Shown: piece by piece, positions 2,539 through 57,270 of the stretch
Numbering within the stretch: the stretch's first letter is position 1
Layout: every line of letters starts with the position of its first letter
Assembly: GCA_013265495.1 (NCBI GenBank)
Contig: MU057560.1
Location: 3,224,909-3,284,908, forward strand
Direction: 5' to 3'
From: Vicugna vicugna
Lineage: Eukaryota
DNA: 60,000 nucleotides
Notes under the pieces: model-generated
Told to the model about the DNA's origin: nothing
Databases searched by the model: none
The model's input: only the letters and a program-made list of their open reading frames with translations
Made by a program: the position numbers and the translations under genes

Positions 2539-2625
2539 CTAATGGGAGCTTCAGAAATGCCGGTGCTTCCCTGAGATACTCAACAGTGACGGTCACTTGT
2601 CTCCAGAATTCCTCAAAAGACGCAC
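2539..2625 (-). pseudogene. SNTG2: SNTG2 exon 7 (end of PDZ domain), with 1-nt deletion creating an immediate TGA
   Basis: Acceptor ttggcag, then GTG CGT CTT TTG AGG AAT TCT GGA GAC AAG TGA (VRLLRNSGDK*, stop at 2595-2593). VTVTVEYLREAPAFLKLPL continues in the shifted frame up to donor gtaagg. Length is 87 nt versus 88 expected. Confidence 0.9.
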
Positions 2626-8671: not shown

Positions 8672-8713
8672 CACTTCTTCGTGGGTTGCATTTCCCACAT
8701 GAATGCCATTAAC
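8672..8713 (-). CDS. SNTG2: SNTG2 exon 6 (PDZ), open
   Basis: Acceptor tcttttcag, then VNGIHVGNATHEEV, then donor gtgagt; 42 nt, separated from exon 5 by a 97-nt intron. Confidence 0.94.
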
Positions 8714-8810: not shown

Positions 8811-8854
8811 CTGCAGAACGGCGTCCCCCACAAACAGCATGCCCGTCCGGTCAG
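8811..8854 (-). CDS. SNTG2: SNTG2 exon 5 (PDZ), open
   Basis: Acceptor cacccgcag, then (A)DRTGMLFVGDAVLQ, then donor gtccgt; 44 nt. Confidence 0.93.
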
Positions 8855-13723: not shown

Positions 13724-13781
13724 CTGCGTGGTCTTTCAATATTTTCGATATGACGACAGGGACTCTGTGCGCCAAGCCTCC
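13724..13781 (-). CDS. SNTG2: SNTG2 exon 4 (PDZ), open
   Basis: Acceptor tcttccag, then GGLAHRVPVVISKILKDHA plus one G, then donor gtgaca; 58 nt, separated from exon 3 by an 81-nt intron. Confidence 0.93.
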
Positions 13782-13862: not shown

Positions 13863-13919
13863 CTTTACGCTCAGGCCCAAGCCGCCCCCGGGCTGTCGGC
13901 GAAGTGTAACCGTTCTGTG
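13863..13919 (-). CDS. SNTG2: SNTG2 exon 3 (start of PDZ domain, carboxylate-binding GLGL loop), open
   Basis: Acceptor ttttaaag, then HRTVTLRRQPGGGLGLSVK, then donor gtgtga; 57 nt. Confidence 0.93.
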
Positions 13920-16900
13920 CTTTAAAACACTTAGGAAGAAAAAGAACAGTCTATGTTAGAATGCACAGTCAGAAAGGGAGTACAAAATGCACAAGCAGCT
14001 TCCGCGTGAAACGCGAGGAACTGTTTATAACGTATTTCCAGAGTCACCCCAGTCACAACACCATCTCCAGTCCAGCCCCTGCCGTGACACGGACGCGGAC
14101 ACGGACAGAATCAGCCCTGTTCTGCGCGTGATTTAAAAGCCACACAGAACTCCGGCAGGCGGGCGCTCTTCCCCTCACCGTCCCTGGGAGTCGAAGCACC
14201 ATGAGGGGAACACTGGCCGTTTCCCGGGGGGCAGACAGTGAGGCCGCAGAGCACACCCTGACCTGTCCCTAACGTCTGTTCTCCCTGCAAAACCGGCTCC
14301 CTCTGCACCGCCCTCCTCCGTGCAGCTCAGTCACTCTTAGGCCAGGTTTCAGGTGATCAGTGTGAACTCTCGAGTGATCAGTTATTCCACGTCCGGATCC
14401 AGTTTAAAGGCGTCGGTGCTGATGAGAAGCCAGATTTCCCCTTGCCCTTGGTGGGGGGTGACTGGCTGGGCACCGTCCCGTCTCGTACACGTTCCATCAC
14501 GTGACGGACTGTGTTTTGGTCTAAACTGCCTGACTGTTAGCTGTGGGGCTGAGAGGGCGAGACCAGGGAGGCCTGGACCAGCTGAAGCGGCTGCAGCGAG
14601 CGTGCTCACCGGAGGGACCATCGGAACGACGGGAGCGCCCAGCATCGCTGGGATGAGCGAGCGCAGAGGTGAGCGCTTTCAGACGCCAAAGAGTGCGTGT
14701 GTGCAAAGCCCGCAAAGAGAGACCCCGGCCGGGGAAGAGCGGGGTGTCCCGAGGGGCCCCGCGGGGGACGCGCCCACTGCCGGCGAGAAAGGACCCGGAA
14801 GCCGTACGGCCACCTGTCACTTACTTACACGCTTTTATTTTTATCATTTTAACTTCTCATATTTATTTATTTATATTTATTATTTTATTATTTAAAATCC
14901 ACTTGTAATTTTAGTCTTTGGAGTGAATATATTATAACCTTAAAGACACCAAAAATTAGAGCAAATAAACCTCTTGTAGGGTGTACGTGGGACACATTCG
15001 ACTATTCTGAGCTCTTCAGCACATGCAACGCTTTGAACTGATGAAATACTTTCACAGTCAAATGTGGGAAGAGCTGTACTTCAGGACTTTGGTTTCAGAG
15101 AAACCGTTTCGCCTTTTCCCTCGTCCTGGACTGGGTTCCCAGTGAGGGAGGTGGGGGCAGCAGTGACACTCGTGCGACAGGGACACCGTGGTGACTTCCA
15201 GGCCGTGTTCTAAGTGCACGTCTGAAACGCCGGGAGCACCTTCACCTGCACAGAGTCCGACGCAGCAGAAGCAGGCGTGAGGCTCGGTCCCCGGCAGGTC
15301 CCCAAGTGCGACACGGGAGCTGACTCTCCAGGTCAGCGAGCATCTCCCGAGTGTGACCAGCAGCGTGGGGACACTCGCTCCCTCTGTTCTGCCCTCGGCC
15401 CTGAGGTCCCCCTGCGCTCAGGCTCGGCTGGGGCGGGATAAGCCCACGTGCAACACATCGGCCCTGAGCTTCCAGCAGAGACCTTCTGAGCGTCGGGAGG
15501 TGGGAAAGCTGGGTCGTCCAGAACATCGACCAGGAGGCTGCGGAGCTCCTCAAAACAGTCGATGATGCTTTCCACTTTTCCCACTGGGATAAGCAGCAGA
15601 ACCCACTGAGAGCAGGAGAGTACGCGTCAGGGGAAACGTGTTTGAGAAGGAGCAGGTGGGTCCTGCCTCCAAAGAGCTCCCCAAATAACGACCTTTCGAC
15701 TGTGTCATTTTGTTCCCACGGGGACCTTAGGAAGACAATGCAAAGGAAACACCAAGAAATGGTCAACGAAGCCAAGTTCTAAGATTCCTAACAGGGGAGG
15801 GAAGGAATTCGTGTCATAACCCTCTTTAACTCGGAGCACCTGCCACCCAGGGTCCCGGCTCAGCCAGAGTCCTGGCCACTCAGATGCCCACTCCACGCGG
15901 TCTGCCGCAGTGCCCCTCCTGAGCACACGTGGCCCCCCATGTGAGCCTCGCTCAGCAAAGCTGCATGTGTCCACATCAGACACTGCAACTGGGGCTTAAT
16001 GCGAACTTCCCATCTGTTACAGCTGCAAGCTGAGGCTCAGATCAGAACATTGCAGTGTCCAGAGATGGGCTTCAGCCGGTTACAAAGATAAAACTGGCCC
16101 TTGTGAGGGATGCCACCAGGCCTGCTGTCCCCCTCCCCGGCCCAGGGCACCTTCACCCACACCCCCGGTCACTGGTGAGTCCACACTCCAGCCTCGCCCC
16201 ACCCCGGCCCCCCCGACATCACCGCCGGGACCACCTGCTACCAAGAGCCAGCAGGCTTTCATGACACACGTGGCGGAAGAGCCCGAAAGAGGGATTGTTA
16301 ATGTTAGCAATTTAGGAGAATTTTCTGAGGATTTTAGTTCTCACACACACACAAAACCTTCTCAATTTTTTTCAGAAAACAGATGTTAGTGGATTTTGAT
16401 GTTGGGGAGGGTGTGGGAGGAGGGTGTCAGGCCCCAGATCCACGACGGGAGCAAACACCCTGGAAGGGTCTTGCAGGTCGGGGTCCAGGTCTCTCTTTCC
16501 TCTCTTCCTAAAGCTTCGACACCAATGACTCCAAAGAAAAAGACCCAGGACCCAGAGTCAATTTATGGTGTGAATACATGTGTAGAAATCAATTTTCAGA
16601 AACTGAAAACAAATGGGTTTTCAATTCAGGTCTTGGGAAAAATGGAAAAAATTCAGAAATAAATGTCTGCCAACAAATAGATACTAAGAATGGGAAAAAG
16701 ACAATGGTGAGGAAGTACGTCCAGGGAGTTCAGAAGGGCTGTTTTGTTACAAAGTTACTTGCAGTTTGGGCTGCAGGATAAAGTATCTGGTGGGAAATCA
16801 GGAAATACAGCAACAAAGATTACAGACAAGAGTAAAATCGTTCTTTAAGTTAAATACTAAATTACAGGTGGTACCTACTTCTGATCTATAAACCCAAAGA

Positions 16901-22397: not shown

Positions 22398-22533
22398 GTT
22401 CGCACTGTGGGTGCTGCCACTGACACAGGACGTCTTGCTTTTGAACTGTCAGTACCTCTTCCGTCAGCTTCAGCCGGACGTCGTAGGCGTGTCCAGACCC
22501 TGGGTCGCACAGCAGTGCGGTCCCGGTTTTGGT
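22398..22533 (-). pseudogene. SNTG2: SNTG2 exon 2 (N-terminal split-PH segment), with 2-nt deletion
   Basis: Acceptor ctgtctccgcag, then TKTGTALLCDPGSGHAYDVRLKLTEEVLTVQKQDV. The tail VSGSTHSAN is in a shifted frame. Donor gtcagt. Length is 136 nt versus 138 expected. Confidence 0.88.
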
Positions 22534-25209: not shown

Positions 25210-25750
25210 CACTGCCTGCGCGTCCGCGTGGAAGACGGACCCGCTGAGGCAGGCGTCAGCCGCGCTGCTCCGCCTGAGGATTTGCAGGCGGAGCCGCCCT
25301 GGAACCCGGCCAGCTCCCGGGCTCCCCGGGCCCGGCTGCGCCGCCACCACCACCGCGCAGCGCCGCGCCTCCCGCTCCTAGAGGGAGCGGCGGCACCGCA
25401 GCAACCTTCGCGCAGTCGGCGATGTGGGCGCGCGGCCCCCGGCGCCTCCCCGCGCGCACCCGGTCAGAGCCAGAGCGCCCGCTAAACGCGGCCCCCGGGC
25501 ACCGGGGGGGGGCGCGCTCCAAGGACCCCCGGAGGAGGCTCCCGGCGCTGCGGGGACCCGGGAGCCCCGCTGCCACCGGCAGGCTCGGGACGGAGGGCTG
25601 AGCGTCACCGGCCTCCGCAGCGGAGGGTGGGCACAGGCCGCGCCGACAGCGCTCGCAGACAAGGACCTTCACCGACAGCCGCAGAGCGGCGTCCGCTTCC
25701 CGTCGCAACGCAGGGCGCGGCTTTTCAAAGCGCCGTGAGACCGCGCGAAA
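25210..25750. promoter_or_regulatory. Intronic CpG-rich island in SNTG2 intron 1
   Basis: Dense CpG/GC sequence (cgcgc, ccgcg runs) sharply contrasting with the AT-rich flank at about 25010-25190. Function unknown. Confidence 0.55.
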
Positions 25751-25949
25751 ATGGAGGATTCTGACCACTGGCATGTAATTCCCCAGACTCGGAGAAGGAC
25801 CCGCGTCTCTGAATTTAAGCTCACCTTCCGGGAGGGTGAGCTCATGATCCGGGGACTGTAGGCCAAACAAAATGCCGTCAAACCCCTGTTATGACGGCTT
25901 CACTGGGGTGCTGGGGAGACAGGGAGGGACAAACGGTGCGGGATGATGT

Positions 25950-26040
25950 GGACGGGGAGGGGAGGGTGGAGCAGGAGGGGTGGGGAGGGGAGTGGAGAGT
26001 GGGGAAAGGGGAGTGGAGGGTGGGGGAGGGGAGTGGGAGA
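25950..26040 (+). repeat. G-rich purine tract with G-quadruplex potential
   Basis: Many G3-G5 runs separated by short linkers (ggggaggggagggtgg..ggggtggggagggg..). Confidence 0.7.
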
Positions 26041-29599: not shown

Positions 29600-30747
29600 G
29601 CATACAACTCAGTGACAAAAAAATAAACAACTCAATCCAAAAATGGGCAGAAGACTTAAACTAACATTTCTCCAGTGAAGTCATACAAATGGCCAATAGG
29701 CATGTGAAAAAATGCTCAATATCATTAATTATCAGAGAAATGAAAATCAAAACTTACAATGAGGTATCACCTCACAACAGTCAGAATGGCCATCATTTAA
29801 AAGTCCACAAACAAATGCTGGAGAGGGTGTGGAGAAAAGGGAACCCCCCAACACTGCTGGTGGGAATGCAGCTTGGTGCAGCCATTGTGGAAAACAGAAT
29901 GGAGATTCTTCAAAAGATTAAAAATAGACTTACCATATGATCCAGCAATCCCACTCCTGGGCATATATCTGGAGAAAAATATAATTCAAAAAGAAACCTA
30001 CTGGAGAGGGGTGGAGAAAAGGGAACCCCCCAACACTGCTGGTGGGAATGCAGCTTGGTGCAGCCATTGTGGAAAACAGAATGGAGATTCTTCAAAAGAT
30101 TAAAAATAGACTTACCATATGATCCAGCAATCCCACTCCTGGGCATATATCTGGAGAAAAATATAATTCAAAAAGAAACCTGAACCCCAATGTTCACAGC
30201 AGCACTGTTTACAACAGCCAAGACAGAGAAACAACCTAAATGTCCATCAACAGATGACTGGGTAAAGATGTGGTATATTTATACAATGGAATACTACTCA
30301 GCCATAAAAACCGACAACATAACGCCATTTGCAGCAACATGGATGTCCCTGGAGAATGTCATTCTAAGTGAAGTAAGCCAGAAAGAGAAAAATACCATAT
30401 GAGATCGCTCATAAGTGGAATCTTAAAAACAAACAAACAAACAAACAAAGCATAAATACAGAACAGAAATAGACTCATAGACATAGAATACAGACTTGTG
30501 GTTGCCAAGTGGGTGGGGGGTGGGAAGAGACAGACTGGGATTTCAAAATTGTAGAATAGATAAACAAGATTATACTGTATAGCACAGGGAATATATACAA
30601 GATCTTATGGTAGCTCACAGAGAAAGAAATGTGACAATGAATATATATATATATATGTTCATCTATAATTGAAAAATTGTGCTCTACACTGGAATTTGAC
30701 ACAACATTGTAAAATGATTATAAATCAATAAAATATGTTAAAAAAAA
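29600..30747 (+). mobile_element. L1 3' fragment (ORF2 C-terminus plus a younger-looking 3' UTR), with an internal ~182-bp tandem duplication
   Basis: ORF-track peptides [39 protein letters not shown] and MFTAALFTTAK..KQPKCPSTDDW..WYIYTMEYYSAIK match the L1 ORF2 C-terminus. A-rich tail at about 30740-30747. Confidence 0.92.
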
Positions 30748-33399: not shown

Positions 33400-35960
33400 C
33401 TTGTTAAAAGAGGAAAAGTACCAAAACTCACTCAGTAACAGGTGACCCAAATGGCCCTGTTGCAGGAGCTGTGTCTCTTCTGCAGAGAAAGTTCCAGGCC
33501 CCAGTGGCTTTACTGGTAAACTCTTTCAAAACCTCCCAGAACACAACAGAGGAGAAAACATGTTCCCACTTTTCTTATGATGCTGGAATTACTGATACCA
33601 AAACCAGACGAATACACTAGAAGAGAGAAAATTAGCTTTACCTCCCTCGTAAGCACAGCTGCGACTATCCATAACAAAGCACCGCCAAGCCAGCGCCAGC
33701 AGCTGCGGGAAGAGCACACCTGACGTCCCCTGGGACTCACACCATCATTGCCAGGCTCCACAAACATCTGAACATCAATGCAGCGCACCAGACGAACAGC
33801 TCAAGGGAAGTGAGACCGGTTTTCCACTAAATTCAACACATTGAAGACCAAACCCCTCAGCGAACCAGGAATGGAGGAGGAACCTCCCCAGACGGATGAC
33901 GTCTGTGCAGTTGACGTGATAACTAATGGTGAAAACAACCAGTATTTATCCCCAAGTTCAAAGACAAAGTGTCGACTTCCCATCACTTCGTCCCAACATT
34001 TTCCTGGAGCCTCCAGCATTGCAATATGGAAGAAAAAAGAACAAAAAAATCATCTCTTGGCAAAGAAAGAAGAACTAAGACTGTCTCTGTCATGGATAAC
34101 ATATTGCCTACCTAGAAAATCCCCCAGAAGTCAAAAAGTAAAGTCACAAAAACTAATCAGCAGATTTAAAAGGGCCACAGGATCGAAGGGAAATGTACAA
34201 AAATCAGCTCTATTTCTAGATGCTAAAATAAGAAAAGTTTGTAAACTGAAATTTCAAAAAATATTACGATAGGATGAAGTATATGGAATAGACATAATAT
34301 TGTAAAGCATCGCTGGCAGAATTTGAAAAATCTAAATAAGAATGATTTTCTGTTCATACGTCATGTTCTTAGTTGGAAAACCAAGTATTTTTAAGACATG
34401 ATTTTTCCCTAGACTGAAGTATACTTTCAAAAAAATCTCAATTAAAATTCCAGCAGGCTTTTTTTGTAGAAATGGGGCAAGTGATTCTACACTTACATGG
34501 AAGGACAAAAGATCTAAAAAACCCAAAACAGTACTGAAAATGAAGGACAAATTTGAATAATTCACACCAAGCGATGTCCAGGCTTTCTGTAAAGCTACAG
34601 CACTGGGTGGATGCGGCACTGGCATCAGGAGACATGTGCAGACAAGGGAGACGGAGCCCGGAAGCACACCCGCAGACCCGCCTGGGAGACGGCCAAGAAG
34701 GTGGCAAAGAAATCCAACGAGGAGCGGGCAAGCTTTTCAAAAAACGCAGCTTGAACAACTGGGGAGCTAGATGCGAAAAAAGAACCCCCGTCCACACTTC
34801 ACTGATTATACACAAAGTGCGCGCAGTGGATCCCAGACTTAAGTGCAGTAATCCAACCTGTAAAACTTCAAGGACAACACAGAAAATTTTATGACATTAG
34901 GTGAGGCAAATATTTCTTAGACAGGACACTAAAAAGAGAGCCCAGAGAAGGAAGGGAGGAAGGAAGGAAGGAGAAAAGGAAAAAAAGAAAAGAAAGAAAG
35001 AAATTGACACACTGGGTTTCATCAAAGTTAAAGTGCGTGCTCTGTGAAAGGCATAGTTAAGGAACTGAAAAGATTAGGTCGACACTGGAATAAAATTCTG
35101 TAAAATCAAAGTCTGATAAAGGAGCTGCATCTAGAATGAACAGACAACTCCTACAACTCAGTATTAAAGGGGAAAAAAACCAATAAAAGATGAGTAAAAG
35201 ACAATCAAATAAAAGATTTTCAAACAGAATATGAAAAGAGATCTTCCAACTTAAAACATAAAAGAAAACCCAGCACAAAAAGGGCAAACACCCGAACGTG
35301 CCTCATGAAGGAAGTTGCCCATGTGGAAAATGTACACTGAAAAGCTGTCTGAAGCCACCGTTCACCCGGGGCCAGGACGAAGCCCGCAGCTGCAGCCGCA
35401 CGTCCACCTGGGGGACTGGGCGTACAGGTGCGGGGTACGGGTACCAGGGCCAGGACACAGCAACAGGACCGGCATCCGTGCGTCGCTGGGGACCAAGGAG
35501 CACAGCCCTGTGGAAAACGACCTGGAGTTTCCCTTGTGAAGTTACAGGTGCACGGAATGTGAGACCAGCCATCAGGCTCCTACGAGTTTGCTCAAGACCA
35601 AGGGAAGTGTGCGAGTACAGAAACCCTGTCTCTGAACACCCGCAGCTGCTCTGTTATGTTATTATGTGTTCACAGCTGCTCCAACCTGGAGGCAACTGCA
35701 CGTCCGTCAGCTGGTGAGACACATTCCTTCGAGGGGACACGCCAGGTGATGAACAATGAACCCGATACATGCGAGCTCCCAGGCGAGGCTGATGAGACCT
35801 GGGGTAGCCTGACCGGGGCCGGAAAGCCACTCGCTGCGAGACCCACGCACAGGACCTCTGGCAGGACAGAACCCGGTCCCGGGGCTGGGAAGTGGCCGGG
35901 GGGACTAACTGCAAAGGAGAGGAGGATATGGGGAGAGTCTTGATCACCGTGGCGACTCCA
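33400..35960 (+). mobile_element. Ancient degenerate L1M ORF2 and 3' end
   Basis: Ordered L1 motifs ccaggccccagtggctttactggtaaa, ctgataccaaaaccagac, aatgtacaaaaatcagctctatttcta, aattaaaattccagcaggcttttttgtagaaat, ctcctacaactcagt and gagaccagccatcaggctcctacg. Boundaries are approximate. Confidence 0.8.
34945..35002 (+). repeat. (GAAG)/(GAAA) purine simple repeat
   Basis: gaaggaagggaggaaggaaggaaggagaaaaggaaaaaaagaaaagaaagaaagaaa. Confidence 0.8.
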
Positions 35961-37313: not shown

Positions 37314-38110
37314 AATTTGTGTCAGAAAAACGATTTGTTAAAGATACATATAATTATATATAATACATAATATAATATAAAATAACATAATACATCATAT
37401 GGTAATACAAAGCAATATTTCAATTTTAATTGAATGCTATTAGTGAGAGAAAAGCTATTGTATTTGAGGAATATTCTGTAAAATTTAGCCCTCAGTTATT
37501 CACTTGGAAAATGCGAAGCATTTATTGGCTTTTCTAACGTGTTTTATGTTTCAGGAATGCCAAGGACATTTTCTTTAAACAACACAGTCGGTGCTTTAAT
37601 TAGAACAGTGCTACATTTTGTCTTCTCTACTAAAGGAACGAATCCTCTATTTAAGGAAGGAAAAAGCCCCACTTGCTAATGAAGCAGTCTTCCCTGAATC
37701 TTCCACAGAATTACTGATCGTCTTCAAGGATCTGCGGGCTTTTTAAATAGATCTCAGCACCAGGTACCACCTGGCAAGTGGATTTCTTCTCCCTGAGCCT
37801 GAGCCGTCCAGGCATCACCCTCTGCATTTATCTTGTCTCCTTCCTTTAAACTAACCCTGGGGGTCTCAGTCACAGCATTCGCCAAATGCCAGCCTCTCTG
37901 CGGAAAGCTCTCATCATTCTAATTCACATTATCTGTTACTGAGTCCAGGCCAACTCACCAATAAGACAGGCACCTTCACAACCATTAAAACAGAAATCTG
38001 ATTCCACGTGAGATTTTTCTCTTGTTCAAAGGGTAAGGAGGTTACTTTGGTTCCTCTCTCCAAAACAAAGCCTAGAGCCTGGGGAGAAGAGTGGCTGGGA
38101 GGTCCTGGGA

Positions 38111-38384
38111 GATCCCCTGGTGTCAGATCCCAGGAGATCCCCTGGTGTCAGATCCCAGGAGATCCCATGGTGTCAGATCCCAGGAGATCCCCTGAACTCA
38201 GATCCCAGGAGATCCCCTGGTGTCAGATCCCAGGAGATCTCCTGATGTCAGATCCCAGGGGATCCCCTGGTGTCAGATCCCAGGAGATCCCCTGGTGTCA
38301 GATCCCAGGAGATCCCCTGAACTCAGATCCCAGGGGATCCCCTGGTGTCAGATCCCAGGAGATCCCTGATGTCAGACCCCAGGC
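38111..38384. repeat. Minisatellite (VNTR), about 11 copies of a 25-bp unit gatcccctggtgtcagatcccagga
   Basis: Units start at 38111, 38136, 38161, 38186, 38211, 38236, 38261, 38286, 38311, 38336 and 38361, with few variants. Confidence 0.95.
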
Positions 38385-41297
38385 GGTCCCTGGCTATGCT
38401 CAGGACCAGGAGGGTGGCCTGGGGACACCATTCTGCCCACGGCCGTGTCCTCGCCCTGTCCCCCATCCTCCAGCCAGGGTGTGAAAGGGAAGTGAACATT
38501 TGGCAAATATGAAGTTCTCTTGGCTCAATCTCTGTCTCTCTCAGAAGGTTACACGTGTTTACAGTTATCTCCAGGAAAATACAGCCATATCAACTTTCGT
38601 ATCTCTAACTTATGCGTAGGTAATACAACACCACACACCCTGGAAATGATGGAAACAAACAAGGAGCACCCCTTCTCTGATCTTTTCTCAGCTTCGCTTC
38701 TCAAAACAAGAGCCAGCAGGCTGGGTCTTTTCCTCTGCTCTGTCCTCCACCTGCAACGCTGTGAGAGCCCTTGCCCGCCTCAGTGTTCATAATGCTTGTG
38801 AGAAAATCAAGGTGAGCAGTTTTGAGGTTCACGACGAAGCAGCAACATTCACGCCAATTCAGAAAAGGCTCCCTCGGGACGTGGTAGGGGGTGTCGGGTC
38901 CTGCACAGGGCAGGGGTCCCCATGGACGCGTGGGAATCAGCGTTGCCAAGACATCACCGCAGACGCTATCTCCGCCTGACGTTCTGAGGGACCCGTTCAC
39001 CGGCGGTCGGCTTCTCTCATAAGGTCATCCTGTGGATGTGCGCTGGGGTACATAGCAAAGTGGCTTTGCGTGGTGGAGCGAGCCCTCTGGGGGCTCCCTG
39101 CGGGACCAGCGCCGCGGGCAGGTGGGTGTGGCGTTACCAGCACTGCCCCCAAATTCCACTTGGGAGTCTGGCTTTCCCGTTTCTGAGGAAAGGCCAACTG
39201 AGGGGAAGACAAGCCACATCCATCAGCCAACACAAATCGTTCTATTTGGAGGAAGGAAATACCTCAATTACGGAAGTTGCTCCATGTGGAATGCCTTCCC
39301 ACCACCTTCTCCGTTTGCCGGAAAGAAAAAAAAGAAAAGAAAAGCAGCGAGTCCTTTCCTCTTTCCATCTGATGGAAGCAGGCACGTGCGTGCCGGCAGA
39401 CCTCCCTTCCTGGAATCTGACATGTATCAACTGAGGAAGAGGCAGTTACTCTACAGGGGCTGGAGTTTTCTTCAGGGAAGATTTTTTTTTCTCTTTAAAA
39501 ACCAGATTGTGTCTAAGAATGAATGTGATTTATATACACTTGGTCCTCTGACAACACTTGATGATTGGATTTTGTATCTCTACAAACTGAAGTGACCACT
39601 CTCAGGGAAATAAACGAACAAAAATTTCCTGGGAACAGAAACAACACGTAAGGCGCTCGTGGCCAGAAAGTCTCTCCCAGCAAACTGAGTGGCTACTAGC
39701 CTCTCTTTTCTGTTACTGAAGACGACTCCATAACAGGAGCAAACAGGCCCATGTCAACCCTCTTTCAGTTGTGACAGTACCACCCCCTTCCTTCTATAAT
39801 AAAATGAGCACTGGACTTGCAGGCTCCAGATCTGGGCTCAGGAACTGGAAACTGGATGCTTTGTCTCCTGTCAAGCGACACCGTAGTTTGGGATGTTCTG
39901 TTACTATGACCTCACCTGTGACCACGTGAGCCACTGTCCTCTCCCTCCCTTGCTCAGGACCATCCTTCATCCTTGGACCAGGGTCTGCCCTCCTAACTGC
40001 CTGGTGTGGCGGGACGCCCACAATGGGATGCCCAGGGTGGCATGCCCTGCAGGTGCAAGCACAGAGCGAGGAGCCTGGAATAGCCAGAGACGCGGGGGAC
40101 CACGTCCTGTGTCGGCCAGTGTCTCTACATCGGGACGGAACCGGCAGAAGCAGCAGGGCCTCAGGCTCCTTGGCGACCCCCAGGTTCTTCTCAGTCCTCC
40201 GCCCTTGGGGCTCCTGCACTGGGCACGTCATGGGTCACAGTGATCTCAGCGTCACCTTCCTGGGCTCAGCAAACCAAGTGAGAATCTGGGCACATCCTCC
40301 CCCCGCCCCTCGTGATGCTCCCCACAGCGTGGCCGGCTCGTCGGAGGAAGCGGTCAGCTCCCCTGCGTTCTGCTCGAGTCTCTGGGGAGAAAGCCTCGGG
40401 TGTGGAATCCTCCCAGCTCTGTCCTGGGGGACCAGTTGCCAGTGCCGCATCCAGGCCGAGTGACCAAATCACAGTCCCCGGGGCTGAGCAGGGGCAGCAC
40501 AGGGGGCACCAAGAGAACAGCAAAGCTGCAGCCTGCTCAGAACAAGCCAGGCGCCTGCATGGAGGAAGCGCCCCCACCCCACGAAATGTGAGAATCAAAC
40601 CGAAACGCCTGAACTGCTGCTTTTCCTATAGACCGTGTTTAGGGGAGGAGCGTCCCAACTGCAAGAGGCTTCCGACTGGAATGGCGCTTCGTACTTCACT
40701 ACGCCTCACGTCCCCCCTGCCAAGGGCCCAGGGCCGGAGGCGACCTGGGTGAGCGGACACCAGCGTGCGAGTGGGGCCGCCCCGTCAGGCACCACCCCAC
40801 GAGGGGCACAGCTCTGAGACGCCGGTTCTTCTCGGAGAAAAGTGAGGAAACGACAGGTGACCCTTGGGCCACGCCGGGTCGGGCACCCACCGTCCGCGCG
40901 GCCGAAGCTCTGGGCGTAACTCACCGGCACCCCCGCGCGGGGCTCCCGTCCTCGGACTCGGGGGAGTGCGGACGGCGGGCCGCACCAGCGCCCCTGCAGA
41001 CCCCGTCCCTGCCCCGGGCCGGTGGGCCCGCTGGTCCCAGCCTCAATGCTCAGGGGCAACTGGTAAGTAACGCTAAGCCTTATTCTATATTAAAACGAAC
41101 ATCTATAATGAGGTAGGCTGTAACTTTTATGAGAATTTAAAAAATAAAACTCAAGGACAGGAGGCGACTGGGGCACTAAGTGGAGCCTCGGAGCTGCCCC
41201 GCCCACACGGGGGAGCCCTGCTCAATGCTGGAGAGCCTGGAATTCAGGCAAAGACGGCTGTTCACCCAGGAGATGAGGAGCCCCAGGACAAGCCTGG

Positions 41298-45735: not shown

Positions 45736-47559
45736 ACCAATAACTGATGAATGTCTTTAAAAGTGTGAAAACTGTCATTTTGTAATGAGAAGTTTTAGAA
45801 TGCAGAATAAAATCTGTATCTAAAGGATGGCTTTTGCTAATAGGATACGTACTGAAAAAGAAGCCAGGAGGAAGCGGTGAAATGCCACGCCGCCACCAGG
45901 TCACAGACTCTCATCTCTCAGGCTGTGCGACGCTCCACACCCTTCCACGCTGAGACAGTAATAAGATGTCACTGTCACGCAAAGGCCAAAACGTCAAAGA
46001 AGCGTATTTAGACCAGAGGAGGTAACAGAAAGGGCCAGAATCCCACCAAGGAGGGGCTGGAGAGGGGCTCCCGCGGCCACGTCCAGGCGCTCGCGCCCTG
46101 CTCCAGCTCCAGCATCCTCACGTGTCACCTAGGTCCTCTTCCAGCTCCCTGCAACCCACGAGACTTTCACAGCACACAGTGCTGACCCCGCAGCCCTGGC
46201 CACCCCTTCTCTGCCTCTTGCCCTCCCAGGACCCATCCTTATTTCCCCCCAAACCTCCCCTCCTCCCTCCCACCTGTGAGAATGGAAAGGACAAATCTGA
46301 AAGCATTTTGATTCCACCCCAGGAAAAATGAGAGGGACCCAAAGGTCATAGTGAAATGTGAGAAAGGCAGAATGAAATAATTCCAATGCACAAAGCACCC
46401 AGCATTCCAGAGCTCTGGGCTGGGCCTGCCCGCCTAGGGAGGAAAGCCTGAAACCCGGGCACGTGACTGTGAGGTGCGGCCCAGCTCTGCGTGTCGTCCT
46501 GAGAGGGGAGCTCTTCAGTTCTGCCTCCTCTCCTTCTTCGCTACCGGCTTTTCCCTCTCCTGTTACTTAGTTTAATAAACCATGTTATATGTGTGCACAT
46601 CAAATTAATAGTAAACTATAATGTCAACCAATTTAGAAATTAATTTTTTAAAACATAACTAAATCTTATCCAAGATCGGACTTCCCACGTGTATTATTAG
46701 TTACTTTTGCCAGTTTCATTCACGTGCTTAGAACAAATCTACTTCACATACAGAGAAAGGGCAGTTTATATGTATGTGAGTGAGCGTGTCTTCATTCATC
46801 TTCTGTTACCTTTTCTGAAACTCTGTTAGCAGTTTCAGAATTGGATTCTAATTTCTTAAATCTTAAAGAAACACAATGATTTTAGGTAAATATTATTCCA
46901 AAAGTCTAAGTGTCAATTAAGAATGTTTGACATTATAACTATATCAACATCAAAATATAAAAATACATATGTTTCATTTATATGACATCTTGAAAATTAA
47001 GATAAAATAATGTATGTAAGCTTAATTTTTTTATATCTCTCCAGACTTTAAGCGAACCAGTTTCTTTCAAAACGCCACTGATTTTGATGACAAGAGGTTT
47101 CGGTTGTAAATCCCGATTCCCACTGCATTGTAAATCTAAGCACCAACTTAGGTGAGAGGGTCTTCGGAGTTTTTCTCTAACGCAGTTACAGGAAGTTCGT
47201 CTGCATCAGCTTCCATACAAAGTCACTGCTTAAAACATGCCATGTTTTACATGCAGATCTTGCATCCTGTATTTACCAGTTACCACCGCGAAGAAATACA
47301 GAGTAAAAGTCAAACAAAAATTACTTTATTTACTAGTAGCTGTTAATACAGAGTAATAAAGGAAATGTTCCTGAAAATTCTATTTTTTCCAAATTTATTA
47401 AACCATCTATTTTATAATTTGAAACTGAAAATTGAAAATGTTTATGTTTGAATTTTAAATTTTCACGATCGAAATAAAGATAACTTAGAAATACAGTTCT
47501 GAGGGAGAAGCTCAGTCTTCAGGAACTAACTGATGATCGTCACTCTAGAGAGACGAGCA

Positions 47560-48560
47560 CCTGCCCCACTCTCCCCCGGCGGGACAGCTGACCCACAGCG
47601 GAGCCCAGCTGCCCGTCCGCGGCCACTCGGTCGCACACGGCAGCCTCTGGGCCCCGGGCCCCAGGCCCCCGCGGCGCCGGCCCGGAGCCCCCCACCGGGA
47701 CTCGAGGACACGGGACACCAGGAGGGGGGCGCCAGCGGAGGCCGCGGGAAGGGAAGGGGGCCCCGACCCAGCGCAGCCGGCGGTGGGGTGCAGGAAACCT
47801 GCCGGCCGGGCCCGGAAGGAAGGCGCCGGCGGTGAGGAGCGTGGACCCCGCCCTGCCTGAGAGCGGAGGTCACGGGTGTGGAGAGAAGCTCTGGTCTGAA
47901 CGTAAAGTGCCTCAGACTTTCTCTTGCCGCGACGCCCGCGGAGCCATCCCGGTCCCGACGGAGCCTCAGAACACACAGATCGCCACGTCCGCACCGCGGC
48001 GGGCTCCTGTGTGACCGCCGGAGCCCCACCCTCTGCGCCCACCTCGGGACGTGCGGCTTGTTTAGTCCATAAAACACCCCGGCTCCAGAAGGTGTCTGCC
48101 CTCCCTCGTGAGGGTGACCTGGGCGCCGGAGGCCCTCCCACCCCGCAGCCCTGCCCGCTCCCGGGGGTGGAGAGCCCTCCACTGACCCGCCGCGGCCGGG
48201 GCCGCTCTCCGCTCGGGCGCGCAGGTGCAGCAGACACGCCGGGGGCGGACTGCACCCGCAGGAGCCTTCAGACCCGGCACGCGTGCGTGTTGCGCGTGCA
48301 CGGAGTGTGTGGTATGTGTGTGGGGGTGTGTGTGTGTGAACGCGCATTGCACGTGTGTCTGTGCGTGTGCAGACGTGGCTCTACCCGCGCCTGGCACGCG
48401 TGCCCAGGTCAGTCAAACCCGTCCTTCCGTCAGGACCCCCGCCGGCGGCCCCCTCACCCCCGCCCTGAGTCCGCGGTGCCCACCTCCCCGCTGACTCAAC
48501 CCCGCTCTCGCCCGGCCTCCCCCGGACCACTGACCCCGGTGGTCGCCCAGGCTCAGTGCC
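47560..48560. promoter_or_regulatory. Intronic CpG-rich island in SNTG2 intron 1
   Basis: About 1 kb of dense CpG/GC sequence directly after a very AT-rich segment (46570-47500). It includes a short TG tract at about 48280-48375. Function unknown. Confidence 0.6.
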
Positions 48561-51543: not shown

Positions 51544-51595
51544 NNNNNNNNNNNNNNNNNNNNNNNNNNNNNNNNNNNNNNNNNNNNNNNNNNNN
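51544..51595. other. Assembly gap (52 N)
   Basis: Run of N flanked by G-rich gggggcagc-type sequence. Confidence 0.99.
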
Positions 51596-54500
51596 GGGGG
51601 CAGCAGGGTTGGGCAGTGTGGGGGGCAGCGTGGGGGAGACGCTGGTCACAAAAGCAGGGAGGGTCCTGCTCAGACAGAAACGCCAGGGACCAGCCGGCCT
51701 CCTGTGCCTCAGAGGAACTTCGGTGTGGCCTGGGGAAAGTGACATCTAGTGTTGGCTGAAAACAACCCCAACTATCTCCAAAATGACAATCTGGATGAAA
51801 ACAGGCACTAAGCATCTGGACAGTAAGGAAGAGCACATGCCAGTTTAAATGCAAATACATTTTTTCTACGAAATTCTCATTCATTTTTCCTCCAAAAGCA
51901 TTTTTTTTACTCTGCCTTGGTTTATCCCCCAAAACACATGCAGATTCTAATTAGCAAGTTTCTGAGGGTGTTGGAATCAGCTTCAGAGTGACTTCAGAAC
52001 CCAAACCACACAGTCAGCAGGTGAGGCCGTGAAGACAGGGGACTCCTGGCTCCTGGTCCAGGTGAAGCGTCCAGTCCTGGACTGGGCCCGGCCATGACCA
52101 CCCGAGTCCACCTGCCCTGGTGCATCTGCACCGTGCAGGACACGCAGGGGCCAGGAGGGTGGAAGGGACCTGGCGTGCCCGTCTTACTGGGTCTTCCTGA
52201 GGGGCAGGTGAGCCAGGATATCACACTGCTTCCAAATTCTAGAGCGAGCGCACCCACTCAGCAGACGGAGCTGGATACAAAATCTCTCACGGGGCTCACC
52301 TCCCTCCACCCTCCACTGAGCTGAGTATAAAGCAGCTCAGTGTCTCCACATGTCACTCGTCCCTGTGGCCTGATGCGCGTCACTCTGCCCTCCTGCCAGC
52401 TGCCTCGAAGTGTGTCTCCTGGGCCGTCTTGGAAAATGGAACTAAAGTCGACATTTAAAAAGCTGTATTTATATTTACATGTCTACACAGATGTGTCAAC
52501 GTAAAAGGTCGTGGTTCTACCCATGTTATTTGGTGAAACGAGGCAATTTTTACATCTGATATTTTCCATAAATAAGCATGCTTTTCTAACTTGGATCTTA
52601 TTAAACTGTTCATTAGGAAACATATCTCCTGGTCAAATCAGGGGATTCCCCATTTGAAAGATATGAATCTTGCTTTGGGGTCACGGACATCATCAAAAGT
52701 TCTACACCTGAGATCAGAGACGAGTCAGCAAGGACGAGGCACATAACAGAAGTGTAAAAGCAACGGACAGCCTCCCCACGGGGTTCCTGCCTAACTCGTG
52801 CAGGGGTTCGCATCTCTCACCGGGTGAGTAAGTGCTTCCATTCCTAGACGCACATTCTAAACGGCCTGCCGTGGTCGCACCTTTCTGTCCCCCGGCTCCT
52901 CAGGGGGACTCACACATGGCTGGCTCTCCCCTGCTTCCAGCCCCTCAGACTGAAGCAGTGTTGCTGATTAAAAACAGAAGATGTGTGTTCATCACAAATC
53001 CACAGCAGTGTTTGAACCCAAAGCAGGGCACACTCAGCACACCATACTGGTGGTTCTCCAGCCGGGGTCCACTGTGGGACACAGGGAGGGTCAGGGATAA
53101 GGGTGTGAACTGGCTCAACTCAGGAAGCTTGTGTAGCAGAGAGCAGCTACCTAAAGCCAAGGAGGAAAAAGCAGCTCCAGCGCTGAACAGGCGACGTTCA
53201 AATCTGGCCAAATTCTGATTTAAACAAGCAGCCACAAAGAGCACGTTGTGTTTCTGACTTCAAAAAACGTTTACAACCAGAAATATAGTGGGTTTAAACC
53301 AACTTGCTTTGTTGTCATCATTTTTCTACTTAGAAGCACTAAGTTCTCCTTCTTCACCGAAATGATTAAATAACTTTGCAATTCAATGATATTACGGATA
53401 GTTACTGATAAGAAAATCAGTAAATCTGCATGGTTGTCTAGTCTGCAGTGATTCAAGTACAAACGAATGGCTGTTAAAGATTCACGGAGCAAAGGTGGAC
53501 ATGCCACTTTGCAGCAAACGTGCCAGCCATGACTGTGTGCGATGAACGGTCCTGTTTTAAAAAGACATGTGTAAACAGAACATTCAGCAAATTCATTTTA
53601 AATGAGCAGAACCTGAACCTTTCCGCAGGCTGGAGCACACGCAGAACGTGTCTTCTATTCGTGAAAGCAGAGGGACCCTCCTGCTCTTGCCTGCTCTGTC
53701 ATAATGCTGACATCGGTTCCCTGCCAGTGCAAGTCACATAGGTCGCATGGGAGAACCCAGGCCCTTATTATAAAGGGAGCACTAATTACATCCTCAGTAA
53801 ATAGGATGGAGCCCCTTGTCTGAGCCCCGAATTCAGTGTCTTAAAGGAGCCAACACTTAGCAGCCTGGAGAGAACTTATTTCAGGATCTCAGGTGACACG
53901 CTTTTGAAAACCTGAAGTTATTGCCCATACCCCTCAGCTGGGTCAAGCATGCAGTACGATGAACCCACTTGTTTGCTCCTCTATGATCACCGCGGTTGTA
54001 AACAAGCCGGCTGTGGGACTACCGCAAGGAGATGTGCAGCTCCCACCCAGGGAGCATCACTGTGAACTCAAGGCAGTGACGAAGCAGAGCGCCCCTGACT
54101 CCCAGCCGCTCTCCTCGCTCAAGCAGCTCACTTCCAGTTATTCCAAGCCCATCTGGTGGTTTAATTTCCAGTAGCTGGAAAACTGCTCCATGACAAAGAA
54201 TGTAAAACACTCAACACAGAACTTCACGTGAAATTTAATTTCAAGATTTCGCAGTAACGTCTCAGAATGATATAGCTTGGTGGAAGAGGCAACTATCTCT
54301 ACATATATATTTTTAAAAGAAAAACATACAAGAATTACTGCCTGGTTTAGAGGCATTCTGACATGAGAATTTATAAAAGTCTTCAATCCACAGTCTGCTG
54401 AAACATTTGTCAGCTGTCCTGAGATGCACAGCTATATACGTGCCGGGTTTTTGGTCACTCCTGAGATCAGGGGCTCTGCAGGGACAAACCCTACAGAAGG

Positions 54501-54799
54501 CGGTTATGGGAGCACGCGGATTAGCCTATTAGCCCAGAGCCTCCCGGGCTCAGGATCCTTAAATTGTTTCCAGAACACTCGGTTATGCTGTGGGTGGCAA
54601 CTCGAAGGTTTCCAAGAACTTTTCGTTTTTGTCTGAGCCACATTTCTGTTTTCCCCCGGTAGTTCAGTTATTTAAAAATAAGAGGGTGGAGGGGGAGTCT
54701 TTTGGGATAGGGGTAGAATAGATGTCACGCACAGGCTCTGTATTAAGAATTCGGTGCTGAGAGCTGAGCTGTCCCCTGAGTTGCTGGGCACTCGGCTAG

Positions 54800-56100
54800 G
54801 GCCCTCAGAATCGGGCAGAGGCCCCCAGGCCGAAGCGGCGCCAGCGACCCCGACGCGCGCCCATCCAGGGGCTCGCCTCCGCTGGACCCTGGGCTCCGAA
54901 GATGCACACAGGAAGATATGAGGAGTGAATCCCCAATCCCCAGTTCTGGAAAACCGGGTTCCCACGGCCACAGAACCCAAGTACCTGCCCAGCCAGCCTT
55001 CAAGACAGGGAGAAGGCAAAGCCCACAGTTTCCATCTGGGATACTGGGGTTGGGGGACTGAGTGGTCAGGGGGCGAAAGCCCACTGTGCCCGGGGTCCTG
55101 GCGCCCGTCAGCCTGCACGAGCCCCCGGGGAGACAGGGATGGGGACGCCGGAAGGAAGGGGGAGCCGGGTGAGGAGGGGGCGTCGGGAAGGAAGGCGGAG
55201 GCGCAGAGGGGAAGGGGGCACGGGGTGAGGAGAGGGCGCGGGGAGGGAAAGGGGGCTCGGAGGGAAGGAAGGGGCGTTGGGGGAGAAAGGGACGCAGAGG
55301 GGAAGGCAGCGCGCGGAGGGAAGAAGGGGGCCGCGGGGGGGGCGCCGAGAACGAACGGCCGCGGGGGGCCGGCACTCACCCGCGCGGGCACCAGCAGGCG
55401 GCCGGGGTCGGGGCTCCCTCGGCGCTCATCGCCCCCAACTCGGCGGGGCCCGCACTCCGGGCCGGGGGCGCTCAGCGCCGGGGCCCCTCGCGAGCAGCCA
55501 AGGGCCCCGTGGGCGCCGCGTCCGCGCCGCGCTCTGCTCGGGCTCCGCGGGCGGCGGCGGGAGGGGCCGAGCTCCGCGCCCCGCCCACTGGCCCCGCCCC
55601 GGCCCGCCCCCGGAGAGGAGGGGCTGCCCAGGGAGGGGACCGGCTGCAGGCGCGGGCGGGGCGCGGAGGCGCCGGGGGCGCGGGCGCGGAGGGGCTCCCA
55701 CCGGTGGGGCCGAGGCCCGGGCGCTCGGGGCCCAGCGGGAGGATGATAGGTTTGGGTGCTGAGGCTCCCTCGGGCGGGCGCCCCCTTCCCGCCCCTGCCC
55801 CCTGCTTGATCTGACTGGGGTCGACCCTTAGACCACAGCGTGGCGCCCCTGGGCCTTCCAGGCCCTCGGACGGTCGCCACCGCGCTGCTTTCCGGGTCCC
55901 TAGGGACCGCCCCCCTGCGACCTGCCCTTCACACGGGCGCTGACGCTGGACCCCGGGGACCTCCAGGACAGGAAAGCGCACAGAAGCCTAAATGCGCGCC
56001 CGCCCGCGCCCGGGCGTGGAGGCTCCGGGGGCGCCTCGGGGCGCACGGCTGGGCCTGACCCTGGCCTCGCACCCCAGACTGTGACTCGGGCACCAGCGCG
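54800..56100. promoter_or_regulatory. CpG-island promoter of SNTG2 with clustered GC boxes
   Basis: Very GC- and CpG-dense stretch spanning exon 1. Sp1-type GC boxes lie at about 55578-55586, 55591-55600 and 55602-55610, roughly 150-180 nt upstream of the ATG. Boundaries are approximate. Confidence 0.8.
55380..55429 (-). pseudogene. SNTG2: SNTG2 exon 1 coding part (ATG to donor), with 22-nt frameshifting deletion
   Basis: ATG at 55429-55427 reads MSAEGAPTPAA (human MGTEGPPPPAA). The conserved LLVPAR (CTG CTG GTG CCC GCG CGG) followed by donor gtgagt (55379-55374) is in a different frame. Length is 50 nt versus 72 expected. Confidence 0.85.
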
Positions 56101-56499
56101 TGGGCTGTTCCCTTGCTCTTTCAGGACGACGGTACTGGGGTGTGTAGACTCAAGTCATCCTAATTTAAATGTAAAGGAAAATTAGTTTGGGGCAAATCTC
56201 AGAAACACACACACACAAACCACGCAACCAACCTTTTAAAAGAAGCATTTATTTTCCTCCCTTCCCAAATCGATGTCTCCCTAGTCCCCCGACACTCGCA
56301 GCGGCACGAACGCGCACAGCTCTTCGTCCCAGGAAGCCGGTTTCATTGTCCTTCCAAGGCCAGGAAAGCCGGACAGCTTGGGTGGCGGGGTGGCGCCCGC
56401 CCCCCTCCGCAGGTGGAATGGAACAAAAATTAAAGACGCTGCTCTTTCTGACGCCAACCTGGTGTTTTCCAGCTCCATCAAAAGAGAATGGACTTGAAA

Positions 56500-57270
56500 A
56501 GTGTTACTTTAAGGTGTACGAAGTGCTGGGTTCATACACTTCTAATACTGCAAAGTGATCACCACCCTAAGTTGGCTGATACCTTCATCAGCTCACATAA
56601 CTACCATTTCTTTTTGGTGGTGAGAACATTTATAACCTACTCTCGGCAACTTGCAAGCATGTAACACAGTACTGATCAGTCACCAGGCTGAACGTGGGAG
56701 CCCCAGGATGTGTTCACCTTATAACTGAACAACATCCTGTGTCCCCCAACCCCGATTTACTCTCTTCGTCCGAGCCGGGCTTTTTTAGACTCCACATTTG
56801 AGACTGCACAGTATGCATCTGCCTCTGACTGACTGGTCTCACTTAACATAATGCCCTCAAAGTTCATCCCTGTTGTTGCAAGTGGTAAGTTTTCCTTCTT
56901 TCTCGTGGCTGTGCAATAGTCATCACATGTGAGCATAATACACACGGATGCACACGTGTATGTAAGTCAGGTGCACACGCGTACACATCTATCTGCTGTA
57001 TCATGATACATACACATACACACACACGCACTCTCACCCCACGTCTTCTTTATCCATTCATCCGTTACCGGACACTCGAGTTGTACCTATGTCGCGGCTG
57101 TTGTGAATAATGCTGATTGAACATGAGAGTCAGATAGCTTTTCTCAATACCCTGCTTTCATTTTCTTTGGTTATATACCCAGAAGGGGGATTTCTGAGTA
57201 TAGTAGTAATTCTATTTCTTTTTTGAGGTACTTCCATACTGTTTTCCATAGTGGCTGCACCAATTTACAA
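56500..57270 (-). mobile_element. L1MA-type 3' end (antisense) with an internal CA-rich tract
   Basis: gtggtgagaacattta..ctactctc, ttttagactccacat, ttcatccctgttgttgca, ttctttatccattcatcc and cttccatactgttttccatagtggctgcaccaatttaca. The minus-strand ORF ENLPLATTGMNFEGIMLSETSQ resembles the L1 ORF2 C-terminus. Confidence 0.8.

Follow-up and report, generated by a model that had tools for sequence, protein, structure and literature searches.

The window analysed here, a stretch of 60,000 nucleotides from Vicugna vicugna, carries on its minus strand a first coding exon of SNTG2 (55380..55429) that is 50 nt long where 72 nt is usual. The question it raises is whether this 22-nt deletion, which causes a frameshift, is real, how it arose and what became of the gene. 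Our answer, to which we give a probability of roughly 0.6, is that a repeat-mediated deletion really took place in the germline and that it sits in a dead SNTG2 of this camelid lineage, the lesions being those known from the assembly.

Judged by comparison with known proteins, the gene is SNTG2, which encodes gamma-2-syntrophin. A search with exon 2 as query returned nine proteins from ten candidates, six of them named gamma-2-syntrophin, two hypothetical and one unnamed, so that every gene-named match was gamma-2-syntrophin and none was gamma-1 or an alpha or beta form. The named proteins were 76-86% identical to the query and one Camelus ferus model 89%, and by protein comparison the exons were 76-95% identical. 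Exons 2-7 were placed in order by tblastn with the orca, hippo, horse and human proteins and have GT-AG ends throughout. Since they are ordered, properly bounded and match the SNTG2 of whale, hippo, horse and human, the exon 1 found here is not a product of chance. The analysed part of the gene, whose position we take to be between TMEM18 and TPO, comprises exons 1-7, exons 8-17 being located outside the window.

Exon 1 opens with the ATG at 55429 and its final base is 55380, the donor gtgagt starting at 55379, and over these 50 nt the reading proposed in a preliminary description of the locus is an exact match to the minus strand. Translation of this strand agrees with the same description in placing LLVPAR outside the frame of the ATG, and the ORF that contains LLVPAR (54672-55880) does start with GTG, as stated there. 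It was also right that the LLVPAR frame has no ATG leading into it from upstream: the minus strand has ATGs only at 56248, 56158 and 55429 within 55429-56300, and the first two both run into a stop before the donor. A rescue of this frame from an upstream ATG is ruled out, since none opens through to the donor. The 402-aa ORF with the GTG start had no match among 1.84 billion representative proteins, and none of five proteins predicted across the deletion junction was found by exact look-up.

The usual length of exon 1 was taken from the 99 of 324 SNTG2 proteins that begin with the canonical N-terminus. The exon encodes 24 aa in 77 of these, 20 aa in 14 and 23 aa in three, with rarer lengths of 17 aa (two proteins), 26 aa (two) and 34 aa (one). 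Because 24 aa, or 72 nt, is found in 77 of the 99, the 22-nt loss is well founded, and the length of exon 1 in homologues together with the order of the exons upholds the identity of the gene, the frameshift and the size of the loss as they had been proposed. Shortening in frame is found in other species (homologues P0294, P0295, P0029 and P0314): exon 1 of the musk deer has three residues fewer at the same Arg-Gly-Arg spot (17 aa), which we count in favour of the repeat mechanism proposed below, and in ruminant models it is mostly 20 aa long and ends four codons early.

The donor of intron 1 (55372..55379, minus strand) is intact, and the frame of the ATG meets a TGA here if the message is left unspliced. 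After splicing, the same frame runs for 37 codons before it meets a stop in exon 2 (22472-22470). Two alternative donors were considered and rejected, the one at 55391 keeping the wrong phase and the one at 55375 including the TGA. Promoter and exon 1 lie in a CpG island recognised by its GC content and CpG observed/expected ratio (55001..56000, no strand assigned), with a GC of 0.77 and a ratio of 0.79 over 55000-56100, rising to 0.84 and 0.86 over 55300-55800. The island is intact and the promoter may still be active; we count the intact island and splice sites against the death of the gene.

All the remaining exons are on the minus strand. Exon 2 (22398..22533) has 136 nt instead of 138, two having been lost near 22422-22423, and its internal donor at 22455 corresponds to the shorter exon 2 that other mammals have (17 of 324 proteins). 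The first premature stop met from the ATG (22470..22472) is followed by two further stops before the loss of two nucleotides restores the frame. Exon 3 (13863..13919, 57 nt), where the PDZ domain starts, exon 4 (13724..13781, 58 nt), exon 5 (8811..8854, 44 nt) and exon 6 (8672..8713, 42 nt) are intact. Exon 3 has an alternative acceptor at 13914, and we infer that its use gives the ITVTLRRQ junction seen in 5 of 324 proteins. Exon 7 (2539..2625) has 87 nt instead of 88, with one base lost at 2597-2598. Exons 3-7 align with orca residues 71-167 and encode the PDZ domain (74-153 in the orca), which the frameshift in exon 7 cuts at residue 147 with a stop at 2593-2595. In about 474 coding bases there are three frameshifts, of -22, -2 and -1 in exons 1, 2 and 7, and with several separate inactivating lesions present in the assembly the SNTG2 of the window is most likely a unitary pseudogene.

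Intron 1 (22398-55429) is about 33 kb long, that of human SNTG2 being presumably some four times longer, and has a gap of 52 N at 51544-51595. At 29818-30181 a 182-nt unit is tandemly duplicated with 99% matches, either as a recent duplication or as an assembly repeat, in what looks like a fragment of L1. The intron also contains a minisatellite at 38108-38390 (25-nt unit, 11.4 copies, 89% matches) and patches rich in CpG and GC at 47501-48500, 40501-41000 and 25501-26000, in a window whose overall CpG observed/expected ratio is 0.57.

Could splicing still produce a protein from this gene? From the ATG, 432 splice paths were followed, which differ in the donors used in exons 1 and 2, in whether exon 3 is entered at its alternative acceptor and in the exons skipped. 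Stops are absent from twelve, two of which finish in the phase that exon 8 requires; none of the 432 keeps exons 3-7, and with them the whole PDZ domain, in frame, so that an open frame from exon 1 through this domain is absent in the window. The loss of 22 nt is not made good by the loss of two (sum -24), a compensation ruled out by the three stops between them. One path, in which exon 1 is spliced to exon 3 at the alternative acceptor, leads around both of these lesions, but the frameshift in exon 7 has no bypass that does not cost the PDZ domain. The preliminary description had called the exon 1 deletion the strongest lesion. It is indeed the least like a sequencing error; however, since it can be bypassed by splicing and the exon 7 lesion cannot be without loss of the PDZ domain, it is exon 7 that holds the decisive break.

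The open paths raise the alternative that SNTG2 has been remodelled, through the junction of exon 1 with the alternative acceptor of exon 3 or through a downstream start, into a shorter protein in which the PDZ domain does not work and the C-terminal dystrophin-binding part is kept. The twelve stop-free paths, two of them in the phase of exon 8, agree with this, as do the intact state of every splice site and of the CpG island and the fact that, of 324 annotated proteins, five have the alternative exon 3 junction and two skip exons 5-7. Both open paths, however, need the skip of exon 2, a minor acceptor and more skips together, and in none of the 324 proteins is exon 1 joined directly to the start of exon 3. 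Moreover, a camelid C-terminal SNTG2 fragment is absent from the best 120 of 152 shorter matches, and the RNA sets holding the exon 1 region are few and small (three at 0.05-0.09, two recorded as RNA), which is no evidence by itself. We consider such a remodelled gene very improbable.

If SNTG2 is dead, as we prefer to read it, the full PDZ-bearing protein would no longer be made from it in this camelid lineage. Once spliced, any message would be expected to fall to nonsense-mediated decay, in line with what is established for transcripts of this kind. The deletion in exon 1 may have been tolerated because SNTG2 had by then become dispensable or had already died, or it may itself have been the first hit.

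As to how the 22 nt were lost, the preliminary description had proposed a collapse between two copies of an octamer standing 22 nt apart. A short direct repeat at this distance remains a good explanation of the junction, but the ancestor reconstructed for it does not hold. The final T of the octamer GGCCGCCT needs Ser at residue 12, which is found only in human and bonobo, and a left copy with Pro at this position lacks the T. Across 34 distinct 24-residue N-termini (two of them mispredicted starts) residue 12 is Pro in 28 and Ser in one, that of human and bonobo. A human-type ancestor with GGCCGCCT was rejected, as it requires both this Ser and Gln at 16, neither of which is supported; residues 15-19 in whales read RPGRL. 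A better candidate repeat lies 4 nt upstream of the octamer (55396..55403, minus strand), is up to 11 nt long and includes 7 of its 8 bases. This stretch (55397..55407, minus strand), the putative surviving copy at the deletion junction, fits residues 8-11 when read from the left and residues 15-19 when read from the right, and it occurs once in the window.

The fit was assessed by comparing the 50 nt with the codons allowed by 14 outgroup proteins, read from the left and again shifted by 22. An unbroken double fit of 11 bases (55407-55397) was obtained with 6 of the 14, namely those of three whales, a sea lion and two bats, and one of 10 bases with the sheep protein, while the runs were broken with horse, macaque, human and mouse-like rodents. 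With the proteins of horse, macaque and human the breakpoints of best fit move to 30-36, and with those of sea lion and bats they lie at 21-34. With the whale proteins the placement of minimum mismatch is further left, by one mismatch, because whales carry Phe at residue 7. The 28 bases from 55407 to 55380 match the whale right-hand reading without mismatch, and a single 22-nt gap explains the exon; one copy of the repeat is left and no bases were inserted at the junction. The repeat finder detected no direct repeat at the junction in 55330-55800, as expected after a collapse.

When 22-nt deletions were placed at random in simulations with GC-rich wobble bases, 1.6-1.9% of them gave a double fit of 11 bases. 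The fit is suggestive of a repeat-mediated loss, short of proof, as no more than 3 of its 11 positions are fixed in the left and the right reading alike. About four wobble bases of the repeat went with the deleted copy, and the roughly four that are visible all match the other copy. Under a flat prior the true repeat is at least 6 nt long in 36% and at least 10 nt in 10% of the matching simulations, and the probability of at least 6 nt becomes 0.67, 0.86 or 0.98 if each homologous base raises the rate 1.25-, 1.5- or 2-fold, these weights being assumed. In a second comparison, a deletion at the longest repeat was favoured over one at a random place by a ratio of only 2.8. Judged from proteins rather than from outgroup DNA, the true repeat was probably about 3-11 nt long. 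Outgroup or camelid DNA for exon 1 was sought with a 23-base pattern, which had no match in metagenome contigs; in addition, a protein scan gave 51 candidate stretches, which led to two loci, both with a later exon and with tortoise and fish proteins as their nearest relatives.

The same figures leave room for a loss that is real, in a gene that is dead, and yet was made by ordinary end joining that involved hardly any microhomology or none, in which case the repeat would be only apparent, a by-product of low-complexity Pro, Ala, Gly and Arg codons in a CpG island. Under the flat prior the true repeat is 0-1 nt in 29% and below 6 nt in 64% of the matching simulations, and no unbroken double fit is obtained with the horse, macaque and human proteins, where the breakpoints move to 30-36. 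Nevertheless, the visible wobble bases all agree, only about 1.6% of random deletions yield an 11-nt fit, and under the assumed 1.5-fold weight a repeat of at least 6 nt has a probability of 0.86. Among human pathogenic deletions of at least 3 bp (n=15,453), according to the figures given in PMC9069542, microhomology of at least 3 bp is present in 40%, against 7.3% of controls, and a prior that favours repeats is therefore reasonable. Ordinary end joining is, in our opinion, unlikely. In the repeat-mediated loss that we favour, the Pro/Ala codons 8-11 and the Arg-Pro-Gly-Arg-Leu codons 15-19 would have made up a direct repeat rich in GC, about 6-11 nt in length and with its copies 22 nt apart, and one copy with the spacer would have been removed by replication slippage or by microhomology-mediated end joining, two processes that cannot be distinguished from a junction.

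The closest relative of the locus among proteins is the C. ferus hypothetical protein CB1_001753004 (EPY75191.1, here P0002), which comes from the same locus and holds exon 2 of SNTG2. It is a chimeric model, made of this exon and of intronic frames (35366-35485 and 15248-15611 in the window), and has no Pfam match. P0002 is the protein closest to exon 2 of the window (33 of 37 residues), its intron-derived pieces agree in 35 of 40, 45 of 48 and 61 of 63 residues, and the two share the private residues 35P and 60L, which are absent from 60 other species. This places the window among the camelids, though not in C. ferus, and presumably in a South American species. The model is without exon 1 and exon 3 and is uninformative on the 22-nt deletion. 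In exon 2, with 5 of 45 residues different, it keeps an unbroken frame at the place where the window has 2 nt fewer, and the loss of two nucleotides is therefore younger than the split from Camelus, or an error. Exon 2 differs from that of C. ferus in these 5 of 45 residues and the intron pieces in 10 of 151 (p=0.34), which fits an exon diverging like introns, as would be seen if constraint had been lost before the split from Camelus, although intact ruminant pairs are similar, with 2-9 differences in 46.

We have also to consider that the missing 22 nt reflect an artefact of library preparation or assembly in a stretch of 84% GC, or a private allele of one animal. The GC of 0.84 around exon 1 is in favour of this, and even the best read run reaches only 0.90 of the sampled words, some being missing everywhere. 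Two single bases are also missing relative to the C. ferus model within about 25 nt of intronic DNA (15440-15460, near 15455-15440); taken with the three exon lesions, all five indels are losses in the window, and the intronic pair fits neutral divergence or a deletion-prone assembly. Of the 24 listed read runs, 17, from three organisms, contain 0.79-0.90 of 260 words sampled from 54300-56900, which shows that this region is real and common to the three, word counts of this kind being unable to resolve the 50-nt junction.

Against an artefact there are two unrelated frameshifts, 33 and 53 kb off, and three or more indel errors in 474 coding bases would have a probability of 0.012 at one error per kb and of 0.00002 at one per 10 kb. 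A repeat of 11 nt is moreover shorter than the word lengths usual in assembly, which we also count against it. The camelid exon 2 query found no camelid SNTG2 protein among its nine matches. None was found either in the best 120 of 586 matches of near length, in the best 120 of 152 shorter ones, where the dromedary SNTG1 is present, or among the cluster members listed. Pig SNTG2 is likewise missing among the listed matches to the whale query, so that absence from such lists is imperfect evidence and only the camelid-query search carries real weight. In the alpaca orthologue table (PMC6598621, supplement file 8), TMEM18, TPO, PXDN and MYT1L have rows on one and the same scaffold, where the model of TPO extends over 225 kb. 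The table has no row for SNTG2, which speaks weakly against an artefact, since SNTB1 is missing too. An artefact or a private allele is, on balance, quite improbable.

The remaining exons carry a modest signal of relaxed constraint, as far as protein alignment can tell. In a set of 60 species (one of 61, Monodelphis, having been dropped for gaps) the window is changed at 9 of 98 columns conserved at the 90% threshold, against a median of 2; 23 cetartiodactyls have 0-6 changes, the dog 14 and the tortoise 11. At 95% the window is changed at 4 of 81 columns, a count matched or surpassed by four species whose genes are annotated as full-length. It would be tempting to go further and suggest that SNTG2 was lost in the ancestor of all living camelids, with the repeat-mediated deletion in exon 1 as the founding lesion common to camels, llamas and alpacas, but we regard this as a tentative and doubtful extension.

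Full-length SNTG2 is annotated in sharks, bony fish, amphibians, reptiles, birds, marsupials and many placental orders, including whales, hippo and ruminants (best 120 of 586 matches). Gamma-2-syntrophin binds the sodium channel Nav1.5 and neuroligins. According to a review (PMC11967788), its partners in the cortex and hippocampus of the mouse include the brain dystrophins Dp71 and Dp140. If the ancestral loss is true, the dystrophin complex, which has five syntrophin adaptors, would lack one of them in camelids, and these animals would serve as a natural knockout. Should the loss prove fixed, healthy camelids would show that a large mammal can manage without the SNTG2 adaptor, which could help in weighing human SNTG2 deletions, and camelid orthologue tables and annotations would need correction. 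The mechanism of the deletion is common and adds little; its value would be that of a dating marker. Our search, with most subscription journals and bioRxiv supplements beyond its reach, found no report of SNTG2 loss in camelids.

A repeat-flanked microdeletion in a decaying single-copy gene is a known kind of event. The unitary pseudogene Aqp10 of Camelidae, as described in bioRxiv 10.64898/2026.09.20.752922, likewise keeps the ancestral intron-exon structure and has frameshifts in different exons; its lesions are reported there as common to all camelids examined, whereas the exon 2 lesion of SNTG2 is not shared with C. ferus. The microhomology-flanked microdeletions below 30 bp of the kind treated in PMC9069542 resemble the one proposed here in being short and set in GC-rich DNA, in needing no insertion and in leaving a single copy, and differ from it in that both ancestral copies are here deduced from proteins. 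With the known SNTG2 (Orcinus orca XP_049551858.1, 539 aa; human PDZ domain in PDB 7QQL; Pfam PF00595 and PF23012) the window shares the order, sequence and splice sites of exons 1-7 and a first exon in a CpG island. Unlike it, the window has exons 1, 2 and 7 of 50, 136 and 87 nt and a PDZ domain without an open frame throughout, and where other mammals have shortened exon 1 of SNTG2 (to 20 aa in most ruminant models and 17 aa in the musk deer) they have done so by whole codons only.
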